Shown piece after piece: positions 14,986-54,456 of a stretch of DNA of 64,000 bases. Both the position numbers and the translations under genes were made by a program. Within the stretch, counting starts at the first letter, position 1. Every line of letters begins with the position of its first letter. Source of the stretch: a phage. Under the pieces are notes generated by a model. That model was not told the origin of the DNA. It was given only the letters and a program-made list of their open reading frames with translations, and ran no database searches. The DNA is taken from the sequence record PZ738962.1; one strand, given 5' to 3'.

Positions 14986-14986
14986 T

Positions 14987-15254: not shown

Positions 15255-15261
15255 CTAGTTT

Positions 15262-15504: not shown

Positions 15505-15538
15505 TTTTATTTCCTCCAGTTCGTTTCGGTATGGGAGT

Positions 15539-15567
15539 ATAATACTACCGATGACCTTTGGCGTCAA
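15539..15567 (-). promoter_or_regulatory. PeSL-type early promoter (TTGACG-N17-TATTAT), degenerate stem-loop
   Basis: TTGACG, 17-bp spacer, TATTAT; conserved leader ACTCCCATACC...GGAGG; drives 15262..15504. Confidence 0.5.
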
Positions 15568-22637: not shown

Positions 22638-22895
22638 TTAATTAAAATCTTCTTTGTCCATCTCTGCGTAGATTACATCCCACGCCCATAAATCAATAAA
22701 CGCATTATATGTCACGGTGCAATCGTTGTCAATCACTTCTTTCGCATATTTCTTGATGTTTTCGTAGGAAACTTGCGGGTCAATTTTGTGTTTACGAAGG
22801 TGCGCATATTCATATCTCAGACATTTCATAAACAGGTCCATCGATTTCTTTTCTCGATGACACTTGGCGATCATAAAATCAAAACTTCGACTCAT
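22638..22895 (-). CDS. hypothetical protein (85 aa)
   Basis: ATG with AAGGAG upstream. Confidence 0.5.
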   Translation of the reverse strand: MSRSFDFMIAKCHREKKSMDLFMKCLRYEYAHLRKHKIDPQVSYENIKKYAKEVIDNDCTVTYNAFIDLWAWDVIYAEMDKEDFN

Positions 22896-23686: not shown

Positions 23687-23715
23687 CATTATAGAGAATC
23701 TCCCTTGTATGTCAA
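23687..23715 (-). promoter_or_regulatory. PeSL-type early promoter (TTGACA-N17-ATAATG) with GGGAGA.../...TCTCCC stem-loop
   Basis: overlaps the stop of gene 39; inverted repeat GGGAGATTCTCTATAATGGGAGTCTCCC. Confidence 0.5.
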
Positions 23716-25816: not shown

Positions 25817-26485
25817 TTATCCCCTTTGTTTCTTAACTGAATTTGGATCTGGATTTTCTGGTAGGTCTTCCAGACCCATAGCATAACGTTGTGCATAGAT
25901 TAGCATAAGAATATCGCGAGCGCAATCATGAATTGCATCATGTGCGATAAAACCATCTAGCGTACCCATTGGTAACGGACACTCACACATCCCGCGATGC
26001 ATCAATGTACGCTCAATGGCGGTGCGAACATCTCGGATGTTCCAGAATCGCACAGGTTCAAGATTGAACGTCTCTCGTGTATTGTGTGCATCGCGGATCA
26101 TATCAACTAGTAACGGAATATCAAACGCATTACCGCGTGACCACATTACGGATTTAACCGGATCTACTCCTACAGATTCACAGAATGCGTTAAAACGCGC
26201 TAAACCTTCTTTAGTTGATACTTCCGTACCATTTGTGATTAATTGCTTTCTCATGCCTTCTGAGGCGGTATTCTTCCACCATTCAACCACACCATGATCA
26301 AAGATCCTTACACCTTTCTGGGAAGGAATATCAAATTTGACCAGAAAGGAATTGTCAACCAGCTCTTTAAATGTAGGTGGATTGTGCGGATCTTCTTTAA
26401 ATCCGATTGCCGCCATATTGATCACCGCCCCATCAGGCGGATAACCTAAACTTTCAAAGTCAATCATTAAATCCATTGGAAGCAT
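25817..26485 (-). CDS. dexA: exonuclease A (3'-5' DnaQ-like exonuclease)
   Basis: 222 aa; strong similarity to T4 DexA as recalled (WWKN, FDIPLLVDMIRD, LEPVRFWNIRDVRT, GTLDGFIAHDAIHDCARDILM, RYAMGLED). Confidence 0.9.
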   Translation of the reverse strand: MLPMDLMIDFESLGYPPDGAVINMAAIGFKEDPHNPPTFKELVDNSFLVKFDIPSQKGVRIFDHGVVEWWKNTASEGMRKQLITNGTEVSTKEGLARFNAFCESVGVDPVKSVMWSRGNAFDIPLLVDMIRDAHNTRETFNLEPVRFWNIRDVRTAIERTLMHRGMCECPLPMGTLDGFIAHDAIHDCARDILMLIYAQRYAMGLEDLPENPDPNSVKKQRG

Positions 26486-26486
26486 T

Positions 26487-26726
26487 TTAAATATCCTCCG
26501 CGATGTGTCGGAACAACTCCAGATCGTTTTTATCTAACACTAGATTGCATTTGGTTGACCGATAATTGCAAACATTAATCAGTAAACTTTCCATCGCCTG
26601 TACCGACTGTACTTTATGTCGAAAAGACATTACATGTTGTGCATAATCAGCGTGAATTTTATCACGATGGAATGTTACGATGGCATCTAAACATAACAGT
26701 TTATCAAGTTCATCAATAATCATCAT
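26487..26726 (-). CDS. hypothetical protein (79 aa)
   Basis: ATG start; position equivalent to T4 dexA-flanking small genes. Confidence 0.5.
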   Translation of the reverse strand: MMIIDELDKLLCLDAIVTFHRDKIHADYAQHVMSFRHKVQSVQAMESLLINVCNYRSTKCNLVLDKNDLELFRHIAEDI

Positions 26727-26727
26727 A

Positions 26728-26895
26728 TCAGTAACCCCGCTTAGTGAAGTGATCTATCATGGAATTAATACAATCGGCCTCGCTGATTCCAGATATACCC
26801 CATCCGTAGTTACCCCACCTGAAATGCATGTATACACATTCGCCATGATACGATACTTTCACTTCGTCAAATTCTGGGATACTTCGCATAATCAT
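26728..26895 (-). CDS. hypothetical small protein (55 aa from ATG)
   Basis: ATG at 26895 preceded by TTGAGGAATATT; track start is TTG. Confidence 0.4.
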   Translation of the reverse strand: MIMRSIPEFDEVKVSYHGECVYMHFRWGNYGWGISGISEADCINSMIDHFTKRGY

Positions 26896-26906
26896 AATAA
26901 TATTCC

Positions 26907-28298
26907 TCAAATATAGTCTACACGATACCGTGCACGGGTAACACCCACATATAATAACTGCATTGCCAATTCAAAGTCAACATTATCTGTACACATGCAA
27001 GGGGTATACAGGAACACACGGTCTACGCTGATTCCTTGTGACTTATGAATAGTGCAAGCTGGTAATGCTTTTACATTCAAGAACATACGCTTCATCGTCC
27101 AGAAAGAATCCCAATCCGGTTTAAAATTCGGATTCTCTTTCTTCATTTCGCGATATTGTCCGGCGACCGTATTCAGATAGATAGAGAAAATGTTCTTCTG
27201 ACGTTGTTCTGTCAGAATGTTGATTTCTACTAAATCTGGTTTATCTGTAGTTATTCCGACTGCATCTAAACCGACTTTCTGATTTAGGATTTCTTTGTCT
27301 TCGTCATCATCGACGCTTTCCACTTTCAGAGTATATCCTAAAACTGGTTGCGGATCTACCCCCGTGCAACGTAATGTAAATTCGCGCGGTATAACCTCTT
27401 TAACTCGGATCATCTCACCATTGTTAAAAATAATATTGGGAATCTTCTTCCCGCGTTCATCTCGCAGATATTCGATCAATGGTTCCTGAGTAACCAGAAT
27501 TTCATCTACAATCACTGGTTCATCGGTGTTATAAACGCGCTTACGCACAATTTCATTGAGTTTTTCGACGCTCTTGTTAGTGTAGGCCAGAATACGGTTT
27601 TCTAGAAGGTCTTCCGGCGTTTTAACGGTTTCGAAATAATGCTTCATAAACTCCGGCAGAGTTGAGCTATGGAATACACCCTCGTTACCGCACTGCTTTT
27701 CGAATACCCATTTACCATTACGGACAGCGGTCGCCACATCAATTATTGGCGCATTAGATCGTTTAATCTCTGTAAGTTCTACATTCTGAAACCTTTCATC
27801 GGTGAAGAAAGGAGAGATCGACGTTGCACCGCTCGGATCAACTGGTCGTAACTGGTACAGATCACCCACGGCAATAATAACAATTCGACCGTTGATACTC
27901 TTCATGAGAATATCAAATAGTTTCTTATCGACCATACTCGCTTCATCAACAATGATGATCTGAACATCATCTAGCTTAGGAGTATCTTTTTGCTCAAATA
28001 CTTGAGTATCTTCATAGTTGGTCGGGTTTAGTCGCAGTAGTGCATGTAAAGTAAATGCTTGACGACCTACCGCTTTACTCAAAACTTTTTTAGCCTGGTG
28101 GGTAGGCGTTGCCAAAACCACACCAGTTACACCACGGCGGACCATTTCCTGAACAATGAATTTCATCATTGCGGTTTTACCAGTACCCGCCGCACCCCGG
28201 ACAGTTGTATGCTTCTTTTGTTCAATGCGTTTCATTAGAACATCAAAAGCATGTTTTTGCCCGTCTGTTAACATATCGAAAGTTAATACTCTGCTCAT
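26907..28298 (-). CDS. dda: Dda DNA helicase (SF1)
   Basis: 463 aa; N-terminus LTDGQKHAFDVLMKRI...GAAGTGKT...ATPTHQAKKVLSK matches T4 Dda as recalled. Confidence 0.9.
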   Translation of the reverse strand: MSRVLTFDMLTDGQKHAFDVLMKRIEQKKHTTVRGAAGTGKTAMMKFIVQEMVRRGVTGVVLATPTHQAKKVLSKAVGRQAFTLHALLRLNPTNYEDTQVFEQKDTPKLDDVQIIIVDEASMVDKKLFDILMKSINGRIVIIAVGDLYQLRPVDPSGATSISPFFTDERFQNVELTEIKRSNAPIIDVATAVRNGKWVFEKQCGNEGVFHSSTLPEFMKHYFETVKTPEDLLENRILAYTNKSVEKLNEIVRKRVYNTDEPVIVDEILVTQEPLIEYLRDERGKKIPNIIFNNGEMIRVKEVIPREFTLRCTGVDPQPVLGYTLKVESVDDDEDKEILNQKVGLDAVGITTDKPDLVEINILTEQRQKNIFSIYLNTVAGQYREMKKENPNFKPDWDSFWTMKRMFLNVKALPACTIHKSQGISVDRVFLYTPCMCTDNVDFELAMQLLYVGVTRARYRVDYI

Positions 28299-30001: not shown

Positions 30002-30520
30002 TTAGTAGCCGCGTTCTTGACGGGCGAAGTTTTCAGCATTTTTCAGATAGTACAGCTTGAAGATATCCTTAGCGGTTAAACCTAAGCCCAGCATTTTAAT
30101 CAGCACAAAATGCCAGATATCGATCAATTCCATCACAATTTCGGTTTTATCGTCATCTGACAGATCAGCAAATTTACGCGCTCGTGCTTCGCCGTGGTTC
30201 TTCTTCCACACTTTAGTAATTGCGCTTGCATCTTTGCCATTTGACATGCCACCCAGGGCAACATAAAGTTCTCGTGTCTCGTCGTCGATTGCGTCATCCC
30301 ACAACTTCATCCAGTCAAGGATCTCCCCGCAAGTTTCCAGCTTATCAGGATGCGGCACCCACTCAAATTTATCAGCTAGTGCGACCTGTAAGCCTTTTTG
30401 CATATCTAACATTACTTGCAGCGGATCTTTGCCGCTAGTGATTGCCTCGGAATACGCAATACCAGCTTTAGACATAGTTTCGTCGCTAACCAGACCAGCA
30501 CAAGAATTAAATTCTGACAT
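30002..30520 (-). CDS. 56: dCTP pyrophosphatase (dCTPase/dUTPase) gp56
   Basis: strong similarity to T4 gp56 as recalled (GEDPLxxMLDMQ, LYxALGGMSNG, DIWHFxL, YYLKNxENxxRQ); start at ATG 30520. Confidence 0.9.
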   Translation of the reverse strand: MSEFNSCAGLVSDETMSKAGIAYSEAITSGKDPLQVMLDMQKGLQVALADKFEWVPHPDKLETCGEILDWMKLWDDAIDDETRELYVALGGMSNGKDASAITKVWKKNHGEARARKFADLSDDDKTEIVMELIDIWHFVLIKMLGLGLTAKDIFKLYYLKNAENFARQERGY

Positions 30521-30534
30521 ATTCACCTCATTGA

Positions 30535-32504: not shown

Positions 32505-33140
32505 TTAATCTAATGTAGAAAGCAAATGTTTTGTTTCTTTCAGTTGTCGTTCAAGATTTTTGCGTTTCTCTTTAAGTTGCATTTTAGCATTATTTCGCTC
32601 TCTTGTAACCTCTTTATCAATGCTCTTATTCCAGTTATCAATATCAGAATAAGTTGGCATACCCAGTTCTAGACCTAATGCGGTTGGATGCAGGGTAACA
32701 GTCCATAAACCGCTAATCTTCTTAAATAGGTCGGGGTGTAGTGTACTATCTACATCTTCCGGTGTCAACTCTTTTTCTTCTTTCAGTGGTGGGATCTCGT
32801 CATATGGTTCCAGTGCATTTACTTTAATATCAGATACCTCATCAAAGAATCCGCGTACATCCGCAGGAAATACACAAGCAATTTCCCAACCGCGATCACG
32901 CAGAGAAGTAATATTTTTCACTCCCCCACCATGTGTGATGATTGAGGTGACATTGCCATCAAGGTCCACCGAATTTACGAGAAATGGCTTATCGTCTGTC
33001 AGATCATTATAAAACTGTGCTTCGGCTGTAGTCATCTCCAGAAACAGATCTCGGATCGGACGACCGTCAGGTGCGTTACCTTCCTTGAGAGTATAAAAGC
33101 GACTTACGATCCATTTTGGCGGTAAAGCATTAGCGATCAT
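32505..33140 (-). CDS. hypothetical protein (211 aa) with HGGG motif
   Basis: ATG with AGGAGATATAAC upstream; ITHGGGVKNI motif; basic coiled-coil C-terminus; no family confidently recognised. Confidence 0.55.
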   Translation of the reverse strand: MIANALPPKWIVSRFYTLKEGNAPDGRPIRDLFLEMTTAEAQFYNDLTDDKPFLVNSVDLDGNVTSIITHGGGVKNITSLRDRGWEIACVFPADVRGFFDEVSDIKVNALEPYDEIPPLKEEKELTPEDVDSTLHPDLFKKISGLWTVTLHPTALGLELGMPTYSDIDNWNKSIDKEVTRERNNAKMQLKEKRKNLERQLKETKHLLSTLD

Positions 33141-33190
33141 GTTATATCTCCTATCAAATCATTCACCAGCGCCCCGCAGGGCGCATTTTA

Positions 33191-34603
33191 TTAGAAAGTC
33201 ATGTTATTTGCTAGCTCGTCGAGTTTTTCTCGTTTCTCGGCTTGTTGTGCGCTTTGTGGTTTAACTTGTGCATTCTCCTGATCTGCGATCTGGTTTGATA
33301 CTTCATACCAACGCTGATTGCCTTTTTTCACACCAACGTTAAACCGTGAATAATAGTTCTTGTCACCGTAACGAGACTTGATCTGCTTCATGAGTTGAAC
33401 GCCCATTTTAGCCAGGTCTTCGGTTTCGATAACACCCAACATAAAATCGGCTGTAGCCGGAAGACCTGCTGATTCAGCGGTATCACTCATGTTAAGGTCT
33501 GACGCATCCCAACCTGCGCGGGTAGTCTGTGCCGCAGTCCAACCAACAACATCCCACTTAACAAAAAATCCTCGCAGTTCTTCCGCAATCGCCTTAACTA
33601 GTGTGTAACTATTTTCAGAGTATACACGCAAGCGAGACGATGCGCAAATCCCCAGATAGTCAACAATCACAACATCAGGTTTAAACTGTTTCTTGAGTCG
33701 CAATTCATTCATTAACGCCTCAAAGTGATTGGAGTTCGCGCCACCAGTCGGATACTGCTTGATCATCAATTTTCCAACCGGACGATCTCCGATCTTCTTA
33801 TTCTTAACACGCTTCATACGTGCGGAATATTCCGCAAAAGAAACATTACCATTATCCAATTCATCTAATGTAATGTCAAGCAAGTTTGCGTCGATACGTT
33901 TGGCTACGACATGCTCTGCCATCTCCATTGAGATATACAATACATCATAACCACATTCCATATAATCCGCAGCAAGAGAACACAATCCAAGCGATTTACC
34001 AACATTTACACCAGCAAGCAACACATTTAGCGTTTTTCTTTCCGCCCCTCCTTTCGTGATTTTATTCAACATCGGCAGCTTAAACGGGATCTTATTCGCT
34101 TTAGTCTGATATAGCAAGAATCGTTTTTCAAAGTCATTAAACCAGTCATGACCTACATCAGAATCAAACGTAATGGATAGTGCTTCCTGCATGATCTCAG
34201 GAATAGCTCCCTCACTCGGCAATTTCTTATTCTGTTTCTCTTTTGGTAGTTGTGCGTTCGCCTGAATCTCTAGCGCCCGTGACATTGCATTATACATGGC
34301 ACGGTCACGAATAAATTTTTCTGTTTCCTTCATTAACCAATCAAGGTCTTCCGGTGTATTCTCCAGCGAATCAAGAAGAGTTTTAGCCCCTTCATATGTT
34401 GTCTGATTGCCTCTCTCCTTGTCCAAAGCAATCTGTAATGCAGTTGGCGTAGGAATATTGGAATATTCGTCTACGTGCTTTTTAATCAGCTTATAAATCA
34501 GTTTTTCTTCGTCTTCGGTGAAGTAGTCCGCTTTAAGGTGAGGCCATACATTCGTAAAGAATGCGCCATTGTAAATCAACTGTGAAAAGATAGTTTTAAT
34601 CAT
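33191..34603 (-). CDS. 41: replicative DNA helicase gp41 (DnaB-like)
   Basis: 470 aa; Walker A GVNVGKS, DnaB-like motifs; collinear with T4 gp41 as recalled. Confidence 0.9.
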   Translation of the reverse strand: MIKTIFSQLIYNGAFFTNVWPHLKADYFTEDEEKLIYKLIKKHVDEYSNIPTPTALQIALDKERGNQTTYEGAKTLLDSLENTPEDLDWLMKETEKFIRDRAMYNAMSRALEIQANAQLPKEKQNKKLPSEGAIPEIMQEALSITFDSDVGHDWFNDFEKRFLLYQTKANKIPFKLPMLNKITKGGAERKTLNVLLAGVNVGKSLGLCSLAADYMECGYDVLYISMEMAEHVVAKRIDANLLDITLDELDNGNVSFAEYSARMKRVKNKKIGDRPVGKLMIKQYPTGGANSNHFEALMNELRLKKQFKPDVVIVDYLGICASSRLRVYSENSYTLVKAIAEELRGFFVKWDVVGWTAAQTTRAGWDASDLNMSDTAESAGLPATADFMLGVIETEDLAKMGVQLMKQIKSRYGDKNYYSRFNVGVKKGNQRWYEVSNQIADQENAQVKPQSAQQAEKREKLDELANNMTF

Positions 34604-34917
34604 ACATAGCCCCCAACTACACGCATAACAAAGGTCTTGAGTTTATACCAGAAAGTTTCTTTTTTCAACTTTTCTTCTGCTTCTTTGATCTGCGCGGTTA
34701 ACGCCTTAATGACGTGTGGATATACCACATCACGATCTGACGGCGTGGAGTAGTCGACCACAATACCTTTAGTGTCTGGATCGTATTCAACATTATGAAT
34801 ATAGACAATATGATGTTCTCCCTCTTCATCAACAATTATCAATTCCTGAATAACTGTCTTCATTGCTTCTTGAATCAAACCGTGTGCTTCTTCTAAACTT
34901 GTTGGCTTCTTATCCAT
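34600..34917 (-). CDS. gp40-like protein (by position between 41 and uvsX)
   Basis: 105 aa; synteny with T4 gene 40; sequence identity not verified. Confidence 0.4.
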   Translation of the reverse strand: MDKKPTSLEEAHGLIQEAMKTVIQELIIVDEEGEHHIVYIHNVEYDPDTKGIVVDYSTPSDRDVVYPHVIKALTAQIKEAEEKLKKETFWYKLKTFVMRVVGGYV

Positions 34918-34972
34918 AATATAATCCTCTCTAGATATGAAAAAGGGGCACGTAGCCCCTTTACTACCATTG

Positions 34973-36043
34973 TTATGCTAACATATCTTCGATTTCTTTG
35001 TCAACTGCTTCGTCGCTGATCACTTGCCCCAGCTTATAATGATCGTTGATTGCTTCGTTAAACTTATCGTTTGTCAGAAGTGGTTTCCAGAACTCAATGC
35101 TATTGGTTTCTTTAGCACGGAACTTGCGTTCTTCGGTTTCCATCTCTCCGGTCTCAGTATTCAGGATTGAACGAGAATACCAGCCGTTTGACGGTTTCAC
35201 TACCCAGCCTAACTCTACAGCCAACTCCAGCAAACCGGAATAAGGATCGATACCACCGCTAAATGTTACGCTAATCGGGAACTTAGATTTTTCTTTAACG
35301 GTTCGCGATTTTTCCGCATTCAGGATAAAATCATAACCAGTAATTTCGGTTCCTTCTTTCTGCTGACGACGACCAATAATGAAAACTTCATTGGCTGAAT
35401 ACATCGCGCCAGTACCGCCGGACATAACGGTCTTACTAAACATTTCTTGCGTTTCGTAAGTGTGGTTAATAGCGATGCACGGGATATCATTCATAGTCAG
35501 ATACGGCGTAACCATACGGAACAAGCCTTTAAGTGCTTTAGCTCGCGTCATATCCTGTGCGGATTTCTCATTAATCGCGTCTTCAACTTCTTTTTTACTT
35601 GCTAAGTTACCGATTGAGTCAATAAAGATGATCACTTTATCTTCGCGGGTAATTTGCTCAAGCTGGTTCATGATTTCAAATTTAAGTTCTTCGATGTTCT
35701 TGATTGGAACATGCACCACGCGATCAGGATCTACACCCATAGATTCAAGATAAGCGGATGTAATACCGAACTCAGAATCAAAGAACAAACACGCCGCATC
35801 AGGATTCTGTTTCATGTATGCACTAACGCAAGTTAATCCCATGTTTGATTTAAAGTGCTTAGACGGACCAGCAAAGAAAATCAGACCAGATTGAAAGCCT
35901 TTTTTAAGATCACCTGAAAACGCAATATTCAGCATCGGGATCTTAGTGCGAGTATTTGTTTTTTCGTTAAAGAAGCTGGATTTAGACAGTACCGCAGTAG
36001 TTTTCAGGGTAGAGTTCTTTTTCAGTTTTTCCAGTACAGACAT
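34973..36043 (-). CDS. uvsX: UvsX recombinase (RecA-like)
   Basis: 356 aa; RecA-fold motifs (FFAGPSKHFKS Walker A-like region, IFIDSIGNL Walker B-like); synteny. Confidence 0.9.
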   Translation of the reverse strand: MSVLEKLKKNSTLKTTAVLSKSSFFNEKTNTRTKIPMLNIAFSGDLKKGFQSGLIFFAGPSKHFKSNMGLTCVSAYMKQNPDAACLFFDSEFGITSAYLESMGVDPDRVVHVPIKNIEELKFEIMNQLEQITREDKVIIFIDSIGNLASKKEVEDAINEKSAQDMTRAKALKGLFRMVTPYLTMNDIPCIAINHTYETQEMFSKTVMSGGTGAMYSANEVFIIGRRQQKEGTEITGYDFILNAEKSRTVKEKSKFPISVTFSGGIDPYSGLLELAVELGWVVKPSNGWYSRSILNTETGEMETEERKFRAKETNSIEFWKPLLTNDKFNEAINDHYKLGQVISDEAVDKEIEDMLA

Positions 36044-36054
36044 TATTAATACCT

Positions 36055-36243
36055 CTATTCAGTTAATCCGTAATACTTTAATTGCTTCATTGTTATTCGA
36101 TCTTTGTATTGCTCTTGAATTAACCGTTTCATCGCATCAACATCGATCGTCACAAATACTTCGTTGCTGTGATTTCCGTGAACTTTCTTGAAATGCTCTA
36201 TGCCTTCCTCTCGTTCACGTTTAATCTTTTCAATGTCTCTCAT
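36055..36243 (-). CDS. hypothetical small protein (62 aa from ATG)
   Basis: ATG at 36243; track start at 36282 is GTG inside a hairpin. Confidence 0.4.
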   Translation of the reverse strand: MRDIEKIKREREEGIEHFKKVHGNHSNEVFVTIDVDAMKRLIQEQYKDRITMKQLKYYGLTE

Positions 36244-36304
36244 AGTATATTTCTCACATTGGCGGGTATCGTCACCCAACACCCGCCATTATACACACTT
36301 TATC

Positions 36305-38983
36305 TTAAATGTCAAACAGGTCAGTCAGAGAAGCAACTTTTTCATATTGCAGTTTTGCAGCCGTGGTAATGTTCTCTAGTGGTTTGACGAAAGTCTTATT
36401 AAACAACAAAGGCCAGTCTAACCACTTTAACACCTCTGATTCAATTTCTGGAGGAATACGAGTACCAGACAACCAACCAAAACAGATTTCTCCAAACGGA
36501 TTTCGGTCTTTAAGCGGTACAATCATAACCTTCTCGCCTTCACGAATCGGATCTAGTCCGAATTTTCGAGCATTACGATTATAACACAATACACTCTTAA
36601 CCGCATACGGACAACCCTTAATCGGATACCCGTTTGAATCGCTGTATTTCTGTAGGTTGTTTGCCGATGATACCGCAGCAACCTCAAGATAGTCAAGTTT
36701 TCTAAACTCTTGCTCAAAAATACCGTAGTATTCCTGCAATGACTCTTCCCCTTCCTGCAACATACGGCGAATACATTCTTTCAGTGATTTCTGACATGCT
36801 TTAGGGGTGGAGCTACGTTGCGTTTCCAAGCCCATGATTTTTAGCTTAGGTTCAGCAAAGCGCGTTCCTTCCATATCCCAAACATTAAGAGCATAACGCT
36901 TTTTGCCAGTCCAGAATCCACCGATACCCGCAGATTTCAACGGAGGACCAGCAATTGCCTCACGGTCCATAAACATCAAGTGCTCATAGTTATTCATGTA
37001 CTCGCATAACTCGCGATATCCCTTGTCGATAATAGGTTCCATTCGATGTTTACCGAAATTATCAAGGAAGTCAACAAGTTTTTCGGTATCGTCGAAACGG
37101 TCTTCCCCGCCAACCTTATCAACAACATTGTTAACCAGCACATAAACGGAGTCAGTATCACAATAACGAACATATGCAAAATCAGTTGTTCCGCAAAGCT
37201 CGTTTAAGTATTCGTTAATCTTACGCTCAATCCACTGAATTGCAAGCTGACCAAACAGTGTGATCGCACTAGCGTTACGGAGATCATAAAATCGGAATTT
37301 AGGATTCCCCAACGCACCATAAAGGGAGTTGATCAAAACTTTTCGAGAAAGCTGGTTTGTATTGCACAAGATCGACTCGTCTTTACATTCTTCCAGCAAT
37401 TTCTCTAAGGCATCTTTACTTAATTCAGAAAGCATCGATTTAAACGCTTCATCGAAGTCGTGACGCACTTCAACGCTATAGCTAATGGTTCCCCCATAAA
37501 CATGATTTTCATCGTGCAGAATCGCTTTACAGAGTTCAGCATTGCGATCACATGCCAGCATCATATTTTTGTACTGCTTACGCTGATCAAATACCTTTTT
37601 AATCTCAATAGGTACGATACCATGAATATCTTTTCGATACATCCACCCGTTAGGCGAGCAAGAATACTCATCACTAGGACGTGGTGCAGTTTTATTGATA
37701 TACTCGTGCATCGGTGCAGCATCAAAAGATCCAGCGATTGTTTCAGGAGAAATATTAACCTGTCGAATAATAGATGGGTACAGACTTGTTAAGTCAAAGC
37801 TCATCATCCAACGGTAAGCATTCGGCACAGGTTCTTTTACGAATGCTCCTGGATACGTCTGCTTAGGCTGTATCTTGTTCTCTGGTACTACTTTACCCTC
37901 TGCTTTCAGAGATCCGAAGATAATAGCATCCCATACTTTCATCGGGTTATAAACATGGTTAAATTTAATCTTTGCATAGAAACATAGACTATACACAAGA
38001 TCGATAAATCCACGCTTTTTATCAATCGCCAGAACACGATCAACGTCGCCGATGTTATAATCGATGTAAAGTTGATGGTTGTCATCACGCAATTTCTTTA
38101 ACGGACCATCATAATCAACCTTACCGATTCCTGTCTCATATTCAGCAACATAATCTAACGCATATGTTGGTTGAGTCGTAAAGCTAAATTTCTTGTATAG
38201 GTCAATATAATCAAGGCTTTCGATCCCCATGATCGTAAATGCTTCACGCTCGTTGCCAAAATCATCCTGTGAGATTCGGGATTTAATCTTACCGCACGGG
38301 CTTAGACGGTTAGCGGTTCTACTTCCGAACTTATTACTGATACGTTTAATGATATATGGAATATCGAATGTTTCTGTGTTCCAGCCAGTGAAACCAACGG
38401 GTCGGTTTTCCTCAAAGAATCGGATGTATTCTAACAGCAATTCATCTTCTGTGTCATAGACGTTATAAACAACGCGATCTACAATATCAGGTCGAAGAAT
38501 AGACTTGCTAGATTCCCAGATTTCACCGTTTTTTCCTTTCAAATCAAATACAAAGAAACGATCATGTACGGAATCATAATGCGTAATTGCATCGATAGGA
38601 TATTTCGCTTCTTCTGGTTTAGGAAATTCTGGGGCAGTGACCTCGATATCAACCCATGCTACACGGATTTTATTTCGGTCATATCGAATCTCGCCTTTAT
38701 ACGTATCAGACAGATAGGAGATGATAAAATCATCCATCCCTAGCGCCTCTTGCCCCATTTCTCCCATCTTTTTACGCCATTTGTTGGCCTCGTTCATAGA
38801 GGGGAATTTTTTAGCAATGCAAGGTTTGCCATAGATATCTTTATAATTCGTAACCATACCAGGCGCGGCATGATGAAATAAAGTTGGCGTATATTCAACG
38901 TAACGCTCTTGTTCTTGTCCAGCATCATCAATATAACGCTCGTAGATCTTATCACCCACTCGCTCACATGACAGAAAATACAT
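36305..38983 (-). CDS. 43: DNA polymerase gp43 (family B)
   Basis: long collinear similarity to T4 gp43 as recalled (exo motifs, SLYPSIIRQ, YCDTDS); start at ATG 38983 with GTGAAGGAG upstream. Confidence 0.95.
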   Translation of the reverse strand: MYFLSCERVGDKIYERYIDDAGQEQERYVEYTPTLFHHAAPGMVTNYKDIYGKPCIAKKFPSMNEANKWRKKMGEMGQEALGMDDFIISYLSDTYKGEIRYDRNKIRVAWVDIEVTAPEFPKPEEAKYPIDAITHYDSVHDRFFVFDLKGKNGEIWESSKSILRPDIVDRVVYNVYDTEDELLLEYIRFFEENRPVGFTGWNTETFDIPYIIKRISNKFGSRTANRLSPCGKIKSRISQDDFGNEREAFTIMGIESLDYIDLYKKFSFTTQPTYALDYVAEYETGIGKVDYDGPLKKLRDDNHQLYIDYNIGDVDRVLAIDKKRGFIDLVYSLCFYAKIKFNHVYNPMKVWDAIIFGSLKAEGKVVPENKIQPKQTYPGAFVKEPVPNAYRWMMSFDLTSLYPSIIRQVNISPETIAGSFDAAPMHEYINKTAPRPSDEYSCSPNGWMYRKDIHGIVPIEIKKVFDQRKQYKNMMLACDRNAELCKAILHDENHVYGGTISYSVEVRHDFDEAFKSMLSELSKDALEKLLEECKDESILCNTNQLSRKVLINSLYGALGNPKFRFYDLRNASAITLFGQLAIQWIERKINEYLNELCGTTDFAYVRYCDTDSVYVLVNNVVDKVGGEDRFDDTEKLVDFLDNFGKHRMEPIIDKGYRELCEYMNNYEHLMFMDREAIAGPPLKSAGIGGFWTGKKRYALNVWDMEGTRFAEPKLKIMGLETQRSSTPKACQKSLKECIRRMLQEGEESLQEYYGIFEQEFRKLDYLEVAAVSSANNLQKYSDSNGYPIKGCPYAVKSVLCYNRNARKFGLDPIREGEKVMIVPLKDRNPFGEICFGWLSGTRIPPEIESEVLKWLDWPLLFNKTFVKPLENITTAAKLQYEKVASLTDLFDI

Positions 38984-39015
38984 AATATAAACTCCTTCAC
39001 TTACGAAAGACACTC

Positions 39016-39044
39016 ATTATAGGGGAATCGACTTAGTTTGTCAA
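39016..39044 (-). promoter_or_regulatory. consensus sigma70-type promoter for gene 43 (TTGACA-N17-TATAAT)
   Basis: perfect -35 and -10 hexamers with 17-bp spacer, about 30 nt upstream of the gene 43 ATG. Confidence 0.65.
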
Positions 39045-39065
39045 TACCCCTATCCCATCAGTATC

Positions 39066-39428
39066 TTATCGCCCGATCTGATATTTCTCGATCAGCGTCC
39101 ACTCTTCTTTCTGTTTGAAAGACAGTACACGGAAATTATTAACTTCGGTAGTTTCAAAATCACTATCAATCAGGGTACACAGATTCCACTGCGCAAGAAG
39201 TTTTGCAATGTTATTACGGCGTAATTCATCTTCCCACGTCATTTTAACACTACGACCATCTAATTTCAACAACTCCTTGAAATGAACGATGTAATAGCGC
39301 CCTTTCTTCTGGAGAATATGACAAGACTGATACAGTGTCTTGTCACGATTGTTGGCAATGCCGCAGCGGGTTAAAGTTTCCTTAATTTTAAGGAAGTTTT
39401 CAGGACTAATCAAATTAATTTCAATCAT
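39066..39428 (-). CDS. regA: translational repressor RegA
   Basis: 120 aa; near-collinear with T4 RegA as recalled (KETLTRxGIANNxDKxLYQSCHILQKKG, NNFRVxSFKQK). Confidence 0.9.
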   Translation of the reverse strand: MIEINLISPENFLKIKETLTRCGIANNRDKTLYQSCHILQKKGRYYIVHFKELLKLDGRSVKMTWEDELRRNNIAKLLAQWNLCTLIDSDFETTEVNNFRVLSFKQKEEWTLIEKYQIGR

Positions 39429-39429
39429 T

Positions 39430-40008
39430 TTACCACCTTTCTATAATCTTTTTAAGTCGTTTCCTTTCTGTCTGATTCTTAGTAACACCCGCCAAAAGTT
39501 CATCGGTCGCATACGGTTTAATGTGCTTCAATAACTTGTCCATATATCCCTTTTCATTAGCCAAATCGAGATAAAACCGGGCGTCATCCATATTTACACA
39601 ATATGCTTTCGCCACTGCCATTAAAACCAATTTTTGGTCCAATTCTTCTGTTAGTTTAGCCCATTTACCGTATCGTTTCCCCTTAGAAATACTCTGTAAG
39701 AGATAATCAAAATGCATTTGATCTGGGAGGCCATGACCGATTAAATTCATCACATACGCGCTATATAGGCAATCTGCGTGCTGGGAAAGAGCGGTGTTAA
39801 TCCATCTCTGGTTATATGCAGAATTGTTTCCCACATTAACGCGCTGTTTATCTAAGGTGATATGATCCATCAGAGCAAATAATGCATTGTCGGTTTTCTC
39901 GGTGAATGTATCCGCTAATTCAGACACCTTTTCCCAATCACGAGAGCGCCATGCAATTTCATGCTCGTTTAATTGTGTATCATCTTCACCGAAAAATTGA
40001 CCTAACAT
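39430..40008 (-). CDS. 62: clamp loader small subunit gp62
   Basis: 192 aa; similarity to T4 gp62 as recalled (QLNEHxxAW, KRYGKWAKL); synteny regA-62-44-45. Confidence 0.85.
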   Translation of the reverse strand: MLGQFFGEDDTQLNEHEIAWRSRDWEKVSELADTFTEKTDNALFALMDHITLDKQRVNVGNNSAYNQRWINTALSQHADCLYSAYVMNLIGHGLPDQMHFDYLLQSISKGKRYGKWAKLTEELDQKLVLMAVAKAYCVNMDDARFYLDLANEKGYMDKLLKHIKPYATDELLAGVTKNQTERKRLKKIIERW

Positions 40009-41765: not shown

Positions 41766-42143
41766 TTACGGGTTTACTTCGTGTTCGTTACGAATCTTGA
41801 GCATTTTGTTTTGGAAGTTTTCCGCAGCTTTCTCATCAATAGTATGAGTATATCTGAATCCAATATATGCTGTCAAGTATTGTTGCAGAGCATAGACAGT
41901 AACAGGATTCTTTGCGGTCTTCTTGCCTTCGAGATATACCAGATCCCCGCAAGGTTCAAACGCAAGTTTACGACGAATCACATTATCAACAAACTCATCA
42001 ACAACAAAATGCCAAATGTTGCTATCGGTTCCAATATCAAAATTAACCACACTGCCACGTTTGACATAATCAAACGGTATCGGGAATAGTTTATAGTCAA
42101 GTTCGATAAACATTAATTGTTCTTTTAAGCTCATACGTTTCAT
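41766..42143 (-). CDS. hypothetical protein (125 aa from ATG), rpbA position
   Basis: ATG at 42143 with GGGAAG upstream; occupies T4 rpbA position but identity not verified. Confidence 0.45.
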   Translation of the reverse strand: MKRMSLKEQLMFIELDYKLFPIPFDYVKRGSVVNFDIGTDSNIWHFVVDEFVDNVIRRKLAFEPCGDLVYLEGKKTAKNPVTVYALQQYLTAYIGFRYTHTIDEKAAENFQNKMLKIRNEHEVNP

Positions 42144-42147
42144 TCTA

Positions 42148-42525
42148 TCACTTCCCATCAGCAATTGCGATCAGACGAGTTACTACTACGCTAGCGGCTT
42201 CAATCAGCAGTTCATCAGTGTCAATCTGATAACCCTTTTCGAGAATATCTTTACCTCGAATAGTTTTAGCGCCTTTAGCAATAGAATCATTGTAATACTT
42301 GCGCATTGCCGCGATCCATTCTTTTTGCACCATATCATCAATATGAGCGTACAGTTCAAAACGTGCTTGCTGCGGGATAACCTTCATTTTAGCTTTCTCG
42401 CTTTCCGGCATTTGCAGTACCCACGCTTTACGGATCTTGTTCATTGCTCGGTCAAATTCGAGGCTGGTTTTCTTGTTCTGAATGTCTGCTACAGTAATTT
42501 TAGCCAGGTTTGCGGAAGTAGTCAT
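42148..42525 (-). CDS. hypothetical protein (125 aa from ATG)
   Basis: ATG at 42525 with GGAGATTAATATT upstream. Confidence 0.5.
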   Translation of the reverse strand: MTTSANLAKITVADIQNKKTSLEFDRAMNKIRKAWVLQMPESEKAKMKVIPQQARFELYAHIDDMVQKEWIAAMRKYYNDSIAKGAKTIRGKDILEKGYQIDTDELLIEAASVVVTRLIAIADGK

Positions 42526-45862: not shown

Positions 45863-46888
45863 CTAACTTTTTGCGCTATTTACCTCGGCTAAAAGTTCAT
45901 CAGAAATACGCTTGACCGCCGCAAGTTCTTCCGGTTCTAGGTTTTGTTCTTCCAGATATTCATATACCATCTGAATAGTGCTTTTAACTTCAATAACACC
46001 TGTTTCCTGTGATGCGCTACTCTCCAGTTTATGGACCACTTTTAGCTTGTGTACAACGGCCTCTAACGCGCTTTCTAACTTAGTTAACCCATTATCAGCA
46101 ACCGTTGCAATAAGACGCACACTAAGCCCCTTAAAGCGTTCTACATCGATTTTATCATCTGACGGGTAAGTGATACGCACATGATAAGTTTTGTCATTCT
46201 GGATAAACTCTTTTTTGTGTGTATCGGTATCGAATACCCAAAACCCACGCGGATCGTTTTCGTCACCCGCCGTTAGTGTGTATGGTGTACCGATATACGT
46301 TACATTACCGCCATCGCTGATAGTATGAAAATGACCGGAAAACACTTCACGGTATTTCTTGAGAAAGTCCGCGCTATAACCTTCGGATTTTAGCCCTTTA
46401 TAGAAATAGTAACCGGACAATTCCCAATGGCCTACACAATATTCGCTGAATGAGTTTTGAATAAACTCTAAAATCTCTGATTTATTGTCATCACAAAACC
46501 ACGGGAACAGATCAAATGATACACCATCAAAGGTAACTGTTTCCGGTTTATCGATAACCTTAATGCAATCATACTGGCTTAACACTTCACGCGGTGCGTT
46601 AGGCTGGATCTTGTTTCGTTTAAACATATCATGGTTCCCGACCGTGATATAACAAGTAATTCCAGCCTCTTCCAGTAATGGGATGACCTTAGTACGGTTA
46701 AATTTCATGGTTTCATGGGTAATTGCTTTTCGGCAATCAAACCAATCCCCTGTTTGAATCCATGTCTTAATATTATGCTCTTTGGAGTATTCAACCGCCT
46801 TCTTGATGGTATCAAGAATATACTCATGCACCCACGGATCATCGCCACCGATACCAGTATGCAGATCACCTAAAAGCAAAATTTTCAT
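45863..46888 (-). CDS. 47: recombination nuclease subunit gp47 (Mre11/SbcD-like phosphoesterase)
   Basis: 341 aa; MKILLLGDLH...GDWFD...GNHD metallophosphatase motifs; similarity to T4 gp47 as recalled. Confidence 0.9.
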   Translation of the reverse strand: MKILLLGDLHTGIGGDDPWVHEYILDTIKKAVEYSKEHNIKTWIQTGDWFDCRKAITHETMKFNRTKVIPLLEEAGITCYITVGNHDMFKRNKIQPNAPREVLSQYDCIKVIDKPETVTFDGVSFDLFPWFCDDNKSEILEFIQNSFSEYCVGHWELSGYYFYKGLKSEGYSADFLKKYREVFSGHFHTISDGGNVTYIGTPYTLTAGDENDPRGFWVFDTDTHKKEFIQNDKTYHVRITYPSDDKIDVERFKGLSVRLIATVADNGLTKLESALEAVVHKLKVVHKLESSASQETGVIEVKSTIQMVYEYLEEQNLEPEELAAVKRISDELLAEVNSAKS

Positions 46889-46930
46889 AGTCTCTTCCTC
46901 TCTTCGTTTTCGATGCTCTCACTATATCAC

Positions 46931-46956
46931 AGAAAAATAAAAAGGGAAACCCCTTT
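46931..46956 (-). terminator. intrinsic terminator (minus strand) after 46979..47266
   Basis: AAAGGG-AAAC-CCCTTT hairpin followed by U-run on minus strand. Confidence 0.5.
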
Positions 46957-46978
46957 CGGAGTCTCCCTTATAAAGCCA

Positions 46979-47266
46979 TTACAGCATACTTAATACCGTT
47001 TGCCGTGTACTAATCCACATAGCAGAAAGCAGTTCTGGCGTGTGTGGCTGTTTGTAGATATCACGTAATTTTCCGATAGCGTAGATATACGCATCACGAT
47101 TATCATCGATGATAGCTTGTTCAGCCCACCGCTTAAGGCGTGCAATCTCTCGCGAGTTCTTACGCAAGATCTTTTCCGCTTTCTTAGCGGCTTTAGCCTC
47201 TAGTTCTGCTTGTACTTTGTCTACTTCATTCACTGCAATCTGGTCATGCTGTTCATCGTAAGTCAT
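46979..47266 (-). CDS. hypothetical protein (95 aa from ATG)
   Basis: ATG at 47266 with AAGGA upstream, directly after upstream stop; track start is TTG. Confidence 0.5.
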   Translation of the reverse strand: MTYDEQHDQIAVNEVDKVQAELEAKAAKKAEKILRKNSREIARLKRWAEQAIIDDNRDAYIYAIGKLRDIYKQPHTPELLSAMWISTRQTVLSML

Positions 47267-47267
47267 G

Positions 47268-47501
47268 TTATTTTCCTTCTGGGATATAATCAATTATTAA
47301 AGAAAATTCATCTTCTGATACATTATAGCTATGTGAGATTGTACCCGTAAAGACCTCAAGATCCGGTGATTTGATATTGCACGGATCGATAATCACCGGA
47401 ACGCCGCAATCTCTCAAAAATAATTTGGCGAAATACGGCACAAGGTCAGTTTCAAACTCTGCTTCTTCCAGCAAACGGGAAATGTTAATTTTCAATCTCA
47501 T
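47268..47501 (-). CDS. hypothetical protein (77 aa)
   Basis: ATG; overlaps gene 55 stop. Confidence 0.45.
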
Positions 47502-48018
47502 AAAATTGGTCCAAGCTAGGCAATTCCTCGGTCAATACATCTTCAACCTTTGGCGCTTTCGGTTTATTGACCGATTCCTCGTAGTTGTTGATTTTATCGT
47601 AAATGTCCTGTATGAATGCCTCATCAGCAATCTGGCACATATCAGCGTCGCGTTCGTCATATACATGATGCACAAAATATTTGTATTTTGCGGCTGTCGC
47701 TGTTCTCTCTTTTTTAATGCGCTGTACAAAAGCATTAAAGCACGCTTGCGTGATGTAAGCATGAGGATTTTTATACTTTGTCTCGTCAAAATTAATCAAA
47801 CCCTTGACCGCCGCTTCGATTCCGTCGTCGATCATTTCTTCGCGCCACGTTTGACTATAACCAGAAAAGTTAAAACGACGTGATAGATTTTTAGAGATTT
47901 GCATAATTGCTAGGCCGATTTGATCGCTCATTGGAACTTGCCGACCTTCTGCTGCAATTTGTTGTTTCCAACGGCAAATTTCTTCGTAAAGCTCTTTATT
48001 GTTTACATAATCAGACAC
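47485..48018 (-). CDS. 55: late-transcription sigma factor gp55 (apparent GTG start)
   Basis: 177 aa; strong similarity to T4 gp55 as recalled ([58 protein letters not shown]); conserved N-terminus requires the GTG at 48018. Confidence 0.9.
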
Positions 48019-48058: not shown

Positions 48059-49528
48059 CTATTCCCCATTACCATTATACTTTCTTTGCTTAGTTATCCA
48101 CACTCTAACCATCTCTACAGATTCGCCGTCAGACGGATCAAGAGTTTTTCCTTTTTTCTTCATGCGGTACTTAAATCCGTTAAATCTTGCATTCTCTTGC
48201 TCGTTAAAGTCGAACATCTTTTTAAATGATTTTCGCCCTTTACGCTCACCACATTCTAGCGGAATCATTCGGTCTGTTATTACATTGGCATTAGGCAGAA
48301 ACGTTTTTAGATAATCCACCAACGCCCAATCAGGAACATATAGATTAACATTCTCCTTGCTCTCGTTGTCTCTCAGGTTACAACGCAAACATAATTGAAA
48401 TGCTGGTTCCAGATAATCAGACACATGACGCGCTTTCAAAAACTCGTTTGTCGGGAGATCACAACTATTAGCAAGACCTTTTAAAATATCAATCTCCCAT
48501 CGTTGAGGGTTAAAGCTGAACATCACAGCAACATTTTTATGATGAATGTAAGAGTTAAGACCATAAGATCCGTAAGGTATCCGCTCACCAATACCATTTG
48601 TACACGCTTCACGGTCCCGATTCACGGTATAAATGAAGTCATCGCCACATTCATTTTTAACCATATCAACAAGACGTTCAAAGGTATTGTTTGTTTCTGA
48701 CTGGTGACGCGACCAGCGTTCGGAGTCCGTCATAAGGATGATGTTAACTCTATCTGTATTTTTATATTCTTTGAAATATAGTCTGGATTCTAGCGCACTC
48801 GGAACAAAATCGCAATTTGCATAGTATCGTAGATACTTCCCACTATATGTATCAAAGAGATTTGCACATGCTATCGTAACCTTTTTAAAGTCTCCCCACG
48901 TACCGTGTTTGTTATCGTTCAAGAAAACAATTTTCGACCCATTCTTCCGGTGTCCTTCGTTATGTTTTACCATAACGTTGATTTTCTTCTCTAATAACGC
49001 CTCATAAAGCCCTCTAAGAGAAGAATCGATCATATCAGTACCATCCTTTGCACTTTCTATCTTTTCTTTGATAGCGGCCTTCTCAGAGTCTTTTAGAACT
49101 AAGTTCTGTAGGCATTCCGATTCGTCGGCGATTGGTTCGCAATGCTTCGTGATAAGTTCAAGATTAGACTTAAACGGATACTCATTAAATTCAACCAGTT
49201 GAGGAACTTCATCAATGTAAAGAGCATATTCACCAAACATTTTTGAACGTTCCATATTAGATAACGCTGTATGTGTAATGAATATCACATCAGCACCGTC
49301 TTTAACTGATTGCATTATCGACGCTTGCACTGTCTTAAGGCTTCTTAGTCTTGTGCTATCAATCAAGACAGCACGACCGCCCATTCTTTTAAACTTATTG
49401 TAAGATTGTTCACTTAAAACACGAGATGGCGAAGCAATAACCGCTTTTTCTTTTGTCTCTAGGACGTGGGAAAGTATAGCATCAGTTTTCCCAGCCGCTG
49501 GCAATGCGATTAATGTTTCAATCTTCAT
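48059..49528 (-). CDS. uncharacterised P-loop NTPase, helicase-like N-terminal domain (489 aa)
   Basis: Walker A IALPAAGKT, motif Ia-like ASPSRVLSEQ, Walker B LYIDEVP; C-terminal 300 aa without recognised motifs. Confidence 0.6.
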   Translation of the reverse strand: MKIETLIALPAAGKTDAILSHVLETKEKAVIASPSRVLSEQSYNKFKRMGGRAVLIDSTRLRSLKTVQASIMQSVKDGADVIFITHTALSNMERSKMFGEYALYIDEVPQLVEFNEYPFKSNLELITKHCEPIADESECLQNLVLKDSEKAAIKEKIESAKDGTDMIDSSLRGLYEALLEKKINVMVKHNEGHRKNGSKIVFLNDNKHGTWGDFKKVTIACANLFDTYSGKYLRYYANCDFVPSALESRLYFKEYKNTDRVNIILMTDSERWSRHQSETNNTFERLVDMVKNECGDDFIYTVNRDREACTNGIGERIPYGSYGLNSYIHHKNVAVMFSFNPQRWEIDILKGLANSCDLPTNEFLKARHVSDYLEPAFQLCLRCNLRDNESKENVNLYVPDWALVDYLKTFLPNANVITDRMIPLECGERKGRKSFKKMFDFNEQENARFNGFKYRMKKKGKTLDPSDGESVEMVRVWITKQRKYNGNGE

Positions 49529-50748: not shown

Positions 50749-50749
50749 A

Positions 50750-52583: not shown

Positions 52584-52593
52584 AATAATCACC

Positions 52594-54428: not shown

Positions 54429-54456
54429 ATTATACATTAGCTAATCATGTTGTCAA
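54429..54456 (-). promoter_or_regulatory. sigma70-type early promoter (TTGACA-N16-TATAAT)
   Basis: consensus hexamers; drives 53860..54399. Confidence 0.55.

Follow-up and report, generated by a model that had tools for sequence, protein, structure and literature searches.

Organization of the uvsX-43 interval

In the 64-kb stretch of phage DNA analyzed here (i.e., the window), uvsX and gene 43 are separated by a gap of 261 bp (positions 36044-36304), which contains one ORF of 62 amino acids and one strong hairpin. The features at this locus are as follows:

34973-36043, minus strand: uvsX, RecA-like recombinase, corresponding to RB49p024 (63% identity to T4 UvsX over 350 amino acids, E = 9e-151)
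36055-36243, minus strand: 62-amino-acid ORF, homologue of RB49p025, with no assigned function (PHROG 12120, E = 2e-40)
36260-36288, minus strand: predicted stem-loop of 12 pairs (including G-U) with a GGCGGG/CCCGCC core and a 5-nt loop (local fold)
36288-36315, minus strand: perfect sigma-70 early promoter, TTGACA-16 nt-TATAAT (12/12 consensus match)
36305-38983, minus strand: gene 43, DNA polymerase (55% identity to T4 gp43 over 903 amino acids; coordinates transferred from RB49p026)

As the gap measures 261 bp, it has no room for gene 42 (741 bp in T4) or beta-gt (1056 bp). Since tblastn also found no homologue of either in the window, the statement in a preliminary description of this DNA that both genes are missing between uvsX and 43 holds. 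The same description gave one small ORF and a hairpin as the sole contents of the interval, which agrees with the ORF at 36055-36243 (minus strand) and the stem-loop at 36260-36288.

The 62-amino-acid ORF, for which a Pfam search returned no match, was found in all Krischvirus records (59), with amino acid identities of 90-99%. When the window, RB49 and SAP sequences of this ORF were compared, one variable site was located at a first codon position, one at a second and five at third codon positions; as most of the variation thus affects third positions, the ORF is probably a real gene, i.e., a conserved ORFan.

Read along the minus strand, the elements of the interval occur in the order TTGACA (36315-36310), 16-nt spacer, TATAAT (36293-36288), stem-loop, ORF start (36243), and Shine-Dalgarno sequence and start codon of uvsX. 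The -35 box lies inside the last codons of gene 43, the stop codon of which occupies 36305-36307, and the first base of the stem-loop, 17 nt past this stop codon, is also the last T of the -10 box. The window contains nine perfect matches to the promoter, each of them in minus-strand orientation, as compared to 0.13 expected. The counterpart of the match at 36288-36315 is annotated as a "hypothetical early promoter" in the RB49 record, and a second perfect promoter (39016-39044, minus strand) is located upstream of gene 43. The local fold of the stem-loop reaches -27 kcal/mol (z = -7.25), with 0 of 200 shuffled sequences being equally stable, and both promoter and hairpin are 100% identical across the window, RB49 and SAP. 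An Rfam scan of positions 35800-36600 matched no RNA family, and the assignment of the hairpin to a known family was thus dropped. A classical intrinsic terminator was likewise dropped as a candidate, as the hairpin lacks a T-run and a terminator scan makes no call there.

Promoter-early stem-loops (PeSLs), which were described in RB49 and phi1, consist of consensus sigma-70 promoters and polyG/polyC stem-loops and occupy the space from the stop codon of one gene to the beginning of a small ORFan; they fall into five positional subclasses, one of which has the stem-loop just downstream of the -10 box, and in reporter assays their stem-loops functioned as terminators or attenuators (Arbiol et al. 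2010, PMC2839356). Promoter activity, too, was demonstrated for PeSLs at other loci, for which a role in recombination is also described. The interval studied here shows consensus boxes, an adjacent G-tract/C-tract stem-loop and a location between a stop codon and a small ORF. Judged by its sequence, the hairpin together with the perfect promoter is a PeSL cassette of the kind known from RB49 and phi1. The hairpin noted in the preliminary description is hence present, although not as an isolated feature, as it belongs to a promoter/stem-loop cassette of known type.

One could argue that the hairpin is merely the transcription terminator of gene 43 and has no tie to the promoter, as it is very stable and follows closely on the gene 43 stop codon, and as one PeSL stem-loop, PeSL211/210, behaved as a strong terminator in a reporter test. 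We consider this unlikely, as no T-run is found behind the stem, the scan does not call a terminator, and the final T of a perfect -10 box doubles as the first base of the hairpin, which is the layout of one published PeSL subclass. Moreover, the two readings are compatible, since a PeSL by definition combines a promoter with an attenuator. In a PeSL cassette at this position, the stem-loop would attenuate read-through coming from gene 43, and the perfect promoter would restart early transcription into the 62-amino-acid ORF and uvsX. Overall, the 261-bp gap represents a putative compact expression unit and not a remnant of hydroxymethylcytosine (hmC) genes. As a separate observation, the strong early promoters ahead of uvsX and gene 43 suit the RB49-type transcription program, which lacks motA and asiA.

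The window is part of a Krischvirus genome

Megablast matched positions 33000-40000 to 59 phage records, all of them RB49-like (genus Krischvirus), at 95-99% identity. Over this region, kaaroe and RB49 are 98.7% and 98.5% identical to the window, respectively, and Phi1, GEC-3S, JSE and others approx. 98.5%; the remainder of the window is 96-98% identical to Krischvirus records. In the alignment with RB49, the window is collinear, with position 20515 corresponding to RB49 position 1 (the end of rIIA) and positions 1-20514 to the right end of the RB49 record, which runs from rnh through the tail-fibre genes to rIIB. The window is thus part of the genome of a Krischvirus, i.e., an RB49-like T4 relative.

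Absence of the T4 hydroxymethylcytosine module

T4 proteins were used as tblastn queries against the window and against the complete genomes of RB49 (164,018 bp) and SAP (165,332 bp). For the phage studied here, 64 kb were examined, and gene absence beyond these 64 kb rests on its close relatives. These searches detected gp56, Dam, Cd, DenA, Frd, UvsX and gp43 at 35-63% identity. Conversely, gp42 had no homologue in the window and matched only its paralogue Td in RB49 and SAP (E = 0.006-0.008). In all three sequences, the best E-values for alpha-gt and beta-gt were at chance level (0.5-1.8), alc, denB and arn gave nothing better than E = 0.03-0.4, and ndd, imm, motA and asiA showed chance-level matches only. 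The genes alc, denB, ndd and arn are also missing at the syntenic t-to-rIIB stretch, which lies within the window. A whole-genome search for gene 42 and glucosyltransferases had been proposed in the preliminary description; run on the complete RB49 and SAP genomes, it recovered none of them beyond the Td paralogue.

The interval between genes 47 (45863-46888) and 55 (47485-48018), in which alpha-gt had previously been reported as not seen, contains homologues of a-gt.4 and a-gt.5 and no other gene, which together with the chance-level tblastn matches confirms this report. With T4 alpha-gt as the tblastn query, no match had an E-value below 0.6. The annotation of the two homologues was carried over from RB49:

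46889-47501, minus strand: gp47-gp55 interval with a-gt.4-like (46979-47266) and a-gt.5-like (47268-47501) genes, no alpha-gt

Modification enzymes were also sought among 17 otherwise unannotated proteins of the window; none belonged to a Pfam glycosyltransferase family, and this possibility was dropped as Pfam gave LprI-like, DEAD-like helicase and D12 methyltransferase matches only. The Td protein of RB49, which has 410 amino acids with an insertion of approx. 125 amino acids and retains its catalytic Cys context, was considered as a hidden dCMP hydroxymethylase. Its PFNVASY motif keeps the dUMP-specifying Asn at the position where gp42 has Asp, and this candidate was dropped as well.

Overall, the entire T4 hmC module (gene 42, the alpha- and beta-glucosyltransferases, alc, denB, ndd and arn) is absent from this lineage. 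Gene 42, alc and denB have been assigned to T-even phages, JS98, RB69, CC31, Acinetobacter phages and some Aeromonas phages, with RB49 excluded (Petrov et al. 2010, PMC2993671). The RB43 and RB49 groups have been described as keeping only homologues of DenA and of the dCTPase-dUTPase, with the comment that how these groups cope with the two enzymes needs study (Nikulin and Zimin 2021, PMC8056088), and Krischvirus has been tabulated as positive for dCTPase and denA and negative for hmC, denB, ndd and alc (2025 survey, PMC12115623). The gene pattern of the window is thus already known, having been published in 2010, 2021 and 2025.

Retention of gp56

Both gp56 and Dam are encoded in the window, as the preliminary description had claimed, with identities to the T4 proteins of 51% and 47%, respectively, and with Pfam domain matches:

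30002-30520, minus strand: gene 56, dCTPase-dUTPase family, all-alpha NTP pyrophosphohydrolase (51% full-length identity to T4 gp56, E = 5e-53)
59896-60708, minus strand: dam, D12-class N6-adenine DNA methyltransferase, corresponding to RB49p063 (Pfam PF02086, 8e-30)

The domain matches of gp56 are to Pfam dUTPase_2 and PRA-PH and to PHROG 173; a search of solved structures for relatives gave no significant match. As both metal-binding motifs are preserved, with ETRE (ExxE) and ELID (ExxD) of the window protein matching EFRE and ELVD of T4 gp56 in the alignment, gp56 is probably an active NTP pyrophosphohydrolase. The window protein is 69% identical to RB49 gp56, with flanks of approx. 97% identity, and shares 98.8% amino acid identity with SAP gp56, i.e., represents the same allele.

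In T4 biochemistry, gp56 is the source of dCMP and dUMP, and T4-type gp56 activity is incompatible with the synthesis of cytosine DNA in T4. As dCTP removal of T4 strength would block cytosine DNA, the dCTPase activity of Krischvirus gp56 would have to be weaker, balanced or regulated; we infer that this protein must differ from T4 gp56 in strength, specificity or regulation, a difference to which its sequence, with both metal-binding motifs preserved, gives no pointer. Where gene 42 is absent, moreover, gp56 is of no service in cytosine replacement. The literature searched yielded no biochemistry of any Krischvirus gp56.

Gene 56 is present in all T4 relatives except four giant phages with host-like dUTPases, and its product has been credited with an "essential dUTPase function" as well as with providing dUMP for dTMP synthesis (Petrov et al. 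2010, PMC2993671). We propose that gp56 has been kept because, like Cd, Td, Frd, Nrd and gp1, it is one of the nucleotide-supply proteins that nearly all T4 relatives have in common. It would clear dUTP and dUDP and turn dC nucleotides into dCMP, from which dCMP deaminase and thymidylate synthase would provide dTMP for a genome with 59.6% A+T. The role of gp56 is most plausibly dUTP sanitation combined with a dC-to-dT flux shared with Cd and Td.

Avoidance of restriction sites and a possible role of Dam

Observed word counts were compared to the expectation under a maximal-order Markov model, with T4 represented by a 78-kb sample. Among the 64 palindromic hexamers, RB49 lacks 22, SAP 24 and the window 25, with as many as 65 copies expected of a single hexamer; the T4 sample lacks 4, every one of which has an expectation below 2. 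Non-palindromic hexamers are rarely absent from RB49 (26 of 4032). The median observed/expected ratio of palindromic hexamers in Krischvirus is 0.57-0.66, as compared to 1.0 for non-palindromes (P = 9e-24 in the window), and 0.91 in the T4 sample. For example, RB49 contains no copies of TCCGGA (65 expected), AAGCTT (38), ACCGGT (35), GGATCC (34), AGCGCT (30) or CCGCGG (27), and GAATTC occurs twice (46 expected).

Depletion extends to type I recognition sites. EcoKI sites are absent from both RB49 (16 in simulated sequences) and the window (6.5), EcoBI sites number 8 in RB49 (27 expected), and in T4 both occur as expected. For EcoAI, RB49 has one site (9.4 expected) and T4 has 10 (3.6 expected), i.e., T4 shows no depletion. 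CCWGG is at half its expected frequency in RB49 and as frequent as expected in T4. A site purge of this kind is classically indicative of DNA that encounters restriction enzymes. Coliphage myoviruses without a hydroxymethylase have been found to avoid 55.8% of E. coli sites, as compared to 2.4% for those with the enzyme (Rusinov et al. 2018, PMC6286503); the literature searched on RB49 and restriction-site avoidance included no paper that named RB49 directly.

Dam of the window retains the catalytic motif DPPY in the alignment with T4 Dam, as well as the equivalents of T4 S112, R116 and R130, which we take to be DNA-contact residues, whereas the equivalents of M114 and P126 are changed. It is 47% identical to T4 Dam and matches the T4 Dam crystal-structure sequence (PDB 1YFJ) with E = 3.6e-65. 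Dam is expected to methylate GATC. The observed/expected ratio for this word is 0.99-1.06 in Krischvirus and 0.33 in T4. Within Krischvirus, TGATCA is retained (87 observed, 93 expected), whereas GGATCC is purged (0 observed, 34 expected). These counts are compatible with Dam covering GATC-specific, m6A-sensitive enzymes. We also observed that GATC is the one abundant 4-bp palindrome without depletion in Krischvirus.

The preliminary description had raised gp56 and Dam as a possible alternative protection against restriction. For Dam, this idea stands at most for GATC sites, to which its cover would be limited; for gp56 it does not stand, as the protection that can be seen in the sequence is site avoidance. 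That the two proteins are the main anti-restriction devices of this phage could be argued from the ability of Dam methylation to block m6A-sensitive GATC enzymes and from the undepleted GATC counts, with TGATCA kept and GGATCC purged. This appears quite improbable, however, as gp56 works on free nucleotides and, without gene 42, leaves the DNA unmarked, and as Dam covers a single tetranucleotide. Moreover, the genome-wide loss of dozens of other sites indicates that those sites are otherwise unprotected, and T4 has both genes, so that their presence is not peculiar to unmodified genomes. The alternative protection is thus likely to be the restriction-site purge and not gp56: the genome would be protected by having eliminated type II palindromes as well as type I recognition sites, e.g., those of EcoKI.

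DNA chemistry of Krischvirus relatives

Digestion showed RB49 DNA to be free of both hmC and ghmC, with HpaII and NheI cutting it (Yaung et al. 2014, PMC4041780), and RB49-type unmodified DNA has already been used as an experimental control. The DNA of the Krischvirus TB34 was found to contain canonical cytosine by HPLC/MS (2026, PMC13390438). As the window shares 98.5% identity with RB49 over positions 33000-40000, and as neither RB49 nor TB34 has modified DNA, the earlier suggestion of DNA without glucosyl-hydroxymethylcytosine, "as in RB49-like phages", is supported. Chemistry measured in relatives likewise supports the conclusion that this phage replicates with ordinary cytosine.

A 2026 study of the Durham collection reported, on the other hand, that SAP DNA carries approx. 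one third 5-hmdC and two thirds alpha-gentiobiosyl-mdC and is cleaved by BrxU (PMC13390438). SAP is 99.96% identical to the unmodified TB34, a comparison that gave no pathway genes or informative differences, and the SAP modification profile is that of seven Tequatrovirus phages from the same collection (PMC13390438). By tblastn, SAP lacks gp42, a-gt and b-gt, and its genome shows a site purge like that of RB49, including the 24 absent hexamer palindromes.

Taken at face value, the SAP report would mean that Krischvirus, possibly including the phage studied here, replaces cytosine by hmC-type bases through an unknown pathway without gp42 or known glycosyltransferases, in which gp56 (removing dCTP) and DenA would have been retained as working parts. 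If true, such a pathway in phages that carry gp56, DenA, Cd and Dam would explain why the dCTPase was kept, and without it, the keeping of dCTPase and EndoII poses a minor paradox, as PMC8056088 remarks; the gp56 allele of SAP is also that of the window, and the modified bases and BrxU cleavage were called unexplained by their authors (PMC13390438). We nevertheless regard this pathway as very improbable, given that TB34 is canonical and its near-identity to SAP revealed no candidate gene, that HpaII and NheI cut RB49, that gp42, a-gt and b-gt were not detected in SAP, and that the SAP sequence bears a purge indicative of restriction exposure, which is not seen in the hmC-protected T4. A sample problem is probable because the SAP profile matches that of the seven Tequatrovirus phages, and the report is doubtful also because a lineage with masked cytosine would not maintain the purge, as T4 does not. 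The likeliest explanation of the SAP report is, in our view, a mixed or mislabelled DNA preparation. The per-site purge determined here thus bears on whether the report of hmC in SAP is real, and it suggests that the SAP sequence evolved as unmodified DNA under restriction exposure.

That gene 42 and the glucosyltransferases are present in this phage outside the 64-kb window is hardly credible: approx. 100 kb of genome lie beyond the window and T4-like genomes are mosaic, with several window segments already replaced as compared to RB49, but six-frame searches of the complete RB49 and SAP genomes found none of these genes, genus-level surveys agree on their absence, the companion genes alc, denB, ndd and arn are gone from their syntenic places in the window, and the window itself carries the restriction-site purge typical of unmodified DNA.

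Overall, we consider it very likely that the window derives from a Krischvirus with cytosine DNA and without the hmC module, in which a PeSL cassette and an ORF occupy the uvsX-43 gap, gp56 has a role in nucleotide metabolism, and protection against restriction comes from the site purge. Both the observation and its interpretation are a rediscovery of documented facts. The RB49-type lack of gene 42 and the glucosyltransferases with retention of gene 56 has been covered in reviews since 2010, and the finding alone adds little.

Comparison with known systems

The closest known system is the genus Krischvirus itself (RB49, Phi1, JSE, kaaroe, TB34 and SAP; "pseudo-T-even" phages), with 96-99% nucleotide identity to the window. 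The two share the gene order rIIA-39-dexA-dda-56-61-41-40-uvsX-ORF-43-regA-62-44-45-46-47-55-nrd-49-dam, and the uvsX-43 interval is almost identical in the window and its relatives. The window is, however, identical to no single record. Two gp56 alleles, mutually 69% identical, circulate in the genus, and the window carries the MIZ6/SAP type and not the RB49 type (69% amino acid identity). Furthermore, the HNH endonuclease gene RB49p040, located between 47 and a-gt.4 in RB49, is missing from the window, as seen at the alignment junction, and replacement or divergence as compared to RB49 also affects segments at approx. 12.4-12.6 kb and 14.7-15.8 kb as well as some portions of the tail-fibre genes.

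T4 and the window have orthologous flanks, uvsX and 43, on either side of the interval, which in T4 extends over 3.6 kb with segA, b-gt, 42, imm and imm.1, whereas it spans 261 bp in the window. From the T4 hmC pathway, the window shares gp56, Cd, DenA, Frd and Dam, whereas gp42, both glucosyltransferases, alc, denB, ndd and arn are absent. As in T4, gene 56 lies beside gene 61, and the product is 51% identical with conserved ExxE and ExxD motifs; unlike in T4, it occurs in a genome without gene 42. Dam is of the same D12 class as T4 Dam (PDB 1YFJ, 1Q0S), with the DPPY motif in common and 47% identity. The dam locus differs, being located between 56 and 61 in T4 and beyond gene 49, beside nrdC, in the window, where genes 56 and 61 adjoin each other. 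The T4 middle-mode genes motA and asiA are absent here, where uvsX and gene 43 instead have consensus sigma-70 promoters ahead of them.

As compared to the PeSLs of RB49 and phi1 (Arbiol et al. 2010, PMC2839356; Comeau et al. 2014, PMC4122927), the cassette in the uvsX-43 interval shows the same near-perfect TTGACA/TATAAT boxes, G-tract/C-tract stem-loop and position between a stop codon and an ORFan, with the stem-loop just past the -10 box. It differs from a typical PeSL in its spacer (16 nt as compared to 17), in its location within a conserved core block and not in a hyperplastic region, and in the placement of its -35 box within the coding sequence of gene 43. Finally, the depletion found here, which is strong and site-specific for type II palindromes and E. 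coli type I sites and is not seen in hydroxymethylase-encoding relatives, is of the kind described by Rusinov et al. 2018 (PMC6286503). They gave one value for four hydroxymethylase-less coliphages taken together, none of them named, whereas the depletion is given here per site for RB49, SAP and the window.

Restriction sites and DNA methyltransferases

Extreme and site-specific purging of restriction sites was observed in the window as well as in the complete genomes of RB49 and a second Krischvirus, SAP; none of this purge was seen in a 78-kb sample of T4. Among the 64 palindromic hexamers, 25 were missing from the window, 24 from SAP and 22 from RB49, with expected numbers of up to 65. The four hexamers of the form NCCGGN and the four of the form NGGCCN were all purged or almost missing (CGGCCG occurs once in RB49), while hexamers with a TATA, ATAT or TTAA core were retained. 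EcoKI sites were absent (0 sites) from the window and RB49, and EcoBI, EcoAI and CCWGG sites were depleted.

GATC, on the other hand, occurred at the expected frequency in Krischvirus (observed/expected ratio of 0.99-1.06; window analyzed over its whole length), in contrast to its strong depletion in the T4 sample (ratio of 0.33; 170 observed as compared to 504 simulated, z = -10.7). Dam, an N6-adenine DNA methyltransferase, is encoded by both T4 and Krischvirus, despite these differing GATC counts. Outside the region corresponding to the window, RB49 carries two more annotated DNA methyltransferase genes:

L004:34977-35816, RB49p143, located between genes 8 and 9 of the baseplate; family matches are to amino-methyltransferases, both generic and of the Eco57I/N6 type
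L005:26402-27118, RB49p189, annotated as a DNA methyltransferase; no Pfam match

The targets of RB49p143 and RB49p189 could have a bearing on which sites are tolerated.

Promoters

Nine perfect TTGACA-N15-18-TATAAT promoters were found in the window (0.13 expected), all nine of them on the minus strand:

710-737, minus, perfect promoter
20746-20774, minus, perfect promoter
22704-22732, minus, perfect promoter
23688-23715, minus, perfect promoter
36288-36315, minus, perfect promoter
39016-39044, minus, perfect promoter
54429-54456, minus, perfect promoter
56932-56959, minus, perfect promoter
62302-62330, minus, perfect promoter

At several of these (those at 62330, 56959 and 23715), the -10 box is bracketed by G/C-rich stem-loop arms, and these promoters look like other subclasses of the promoter-early stem-loop (PeSL) cassettes of RB49 and phi1.

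Small reading frames and protein families

For residues 17-62 of the 62-aa ORF (36055-36243, minus strand) in the uvsX-43 gap, short stretches with 45-48% identity were found in approx. 48-kb phages of Salmonella, Klebsiella and Escherichia; these stretches are located in or beside genes annotated as DUF2800/exonuclease. Two nearby proteins in the nrdH-nrdG region (50750-51574 and 52056-52592) share PHROG 5347 and look like a local paralogue pair; for the longer one (50750-51574), there were further matches to goF-like families labelled "mRNA metabolism modulator". The 489-aa protein beside gene 55 (48059-49528; RB49p044, annotated as hypothetical) showed a weak N-terminal match to DEAD/DEAH helicases (Pfam, E = 3e-6).

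The Krischvirus thymidylate synthase, encoded outside the window (RB49 td, L005:47382-48614), is 410 aa long; its Thymidylat_synt Pfam match in RB49 is split by an insertion of approx. 125 aa, with the catalytic and dUMP-specifying motifs intact.

Differences from RB49 and the gene 56 mosaic

The HNH/AP2 endonuclease gene RB49p040, located between gene 47 and a-gt.4 in RB49 (26380-26934), is missing at 46885-46889 of the window. The following segments did not align with RB49 or were just 60-80% identical to it:

7700-10800
12407-12616
14687-15779
26500-26900
41900-42200
50400-50800
62300-62600

These segments, which include tail-fibre genes and several small ORFs, represent mosaic replacement in a genome that is otherwise 96-98% identical.

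The gene for gp56, a protein of the dCTPase-dUTPase family (30002-30526), is likewise a mosaic, with gene-precise borders; identity to RB49 is approx. 72% at the nucleotide level and 69% at the amino acid level, as compared to approx. 97% in the flanks. The window-type allele was found in 16 phage records (e.g., MIZ6 and SAP), and the RB49-type allele in most remaining Krischvirus records. In SAP, the window-type allele has two homing endonuclease genes of the HNH/AP2 type in its flanks, at the 56/61 and 61/61.1 junctions; both of these genes are absent from the window. Together, the allele pattern and the SAP endonuclease genes suggest that gene 56 may have been exchanged by homing-associated co-conversion, of which segF/gene 56 in T4 and T2 is a known case.
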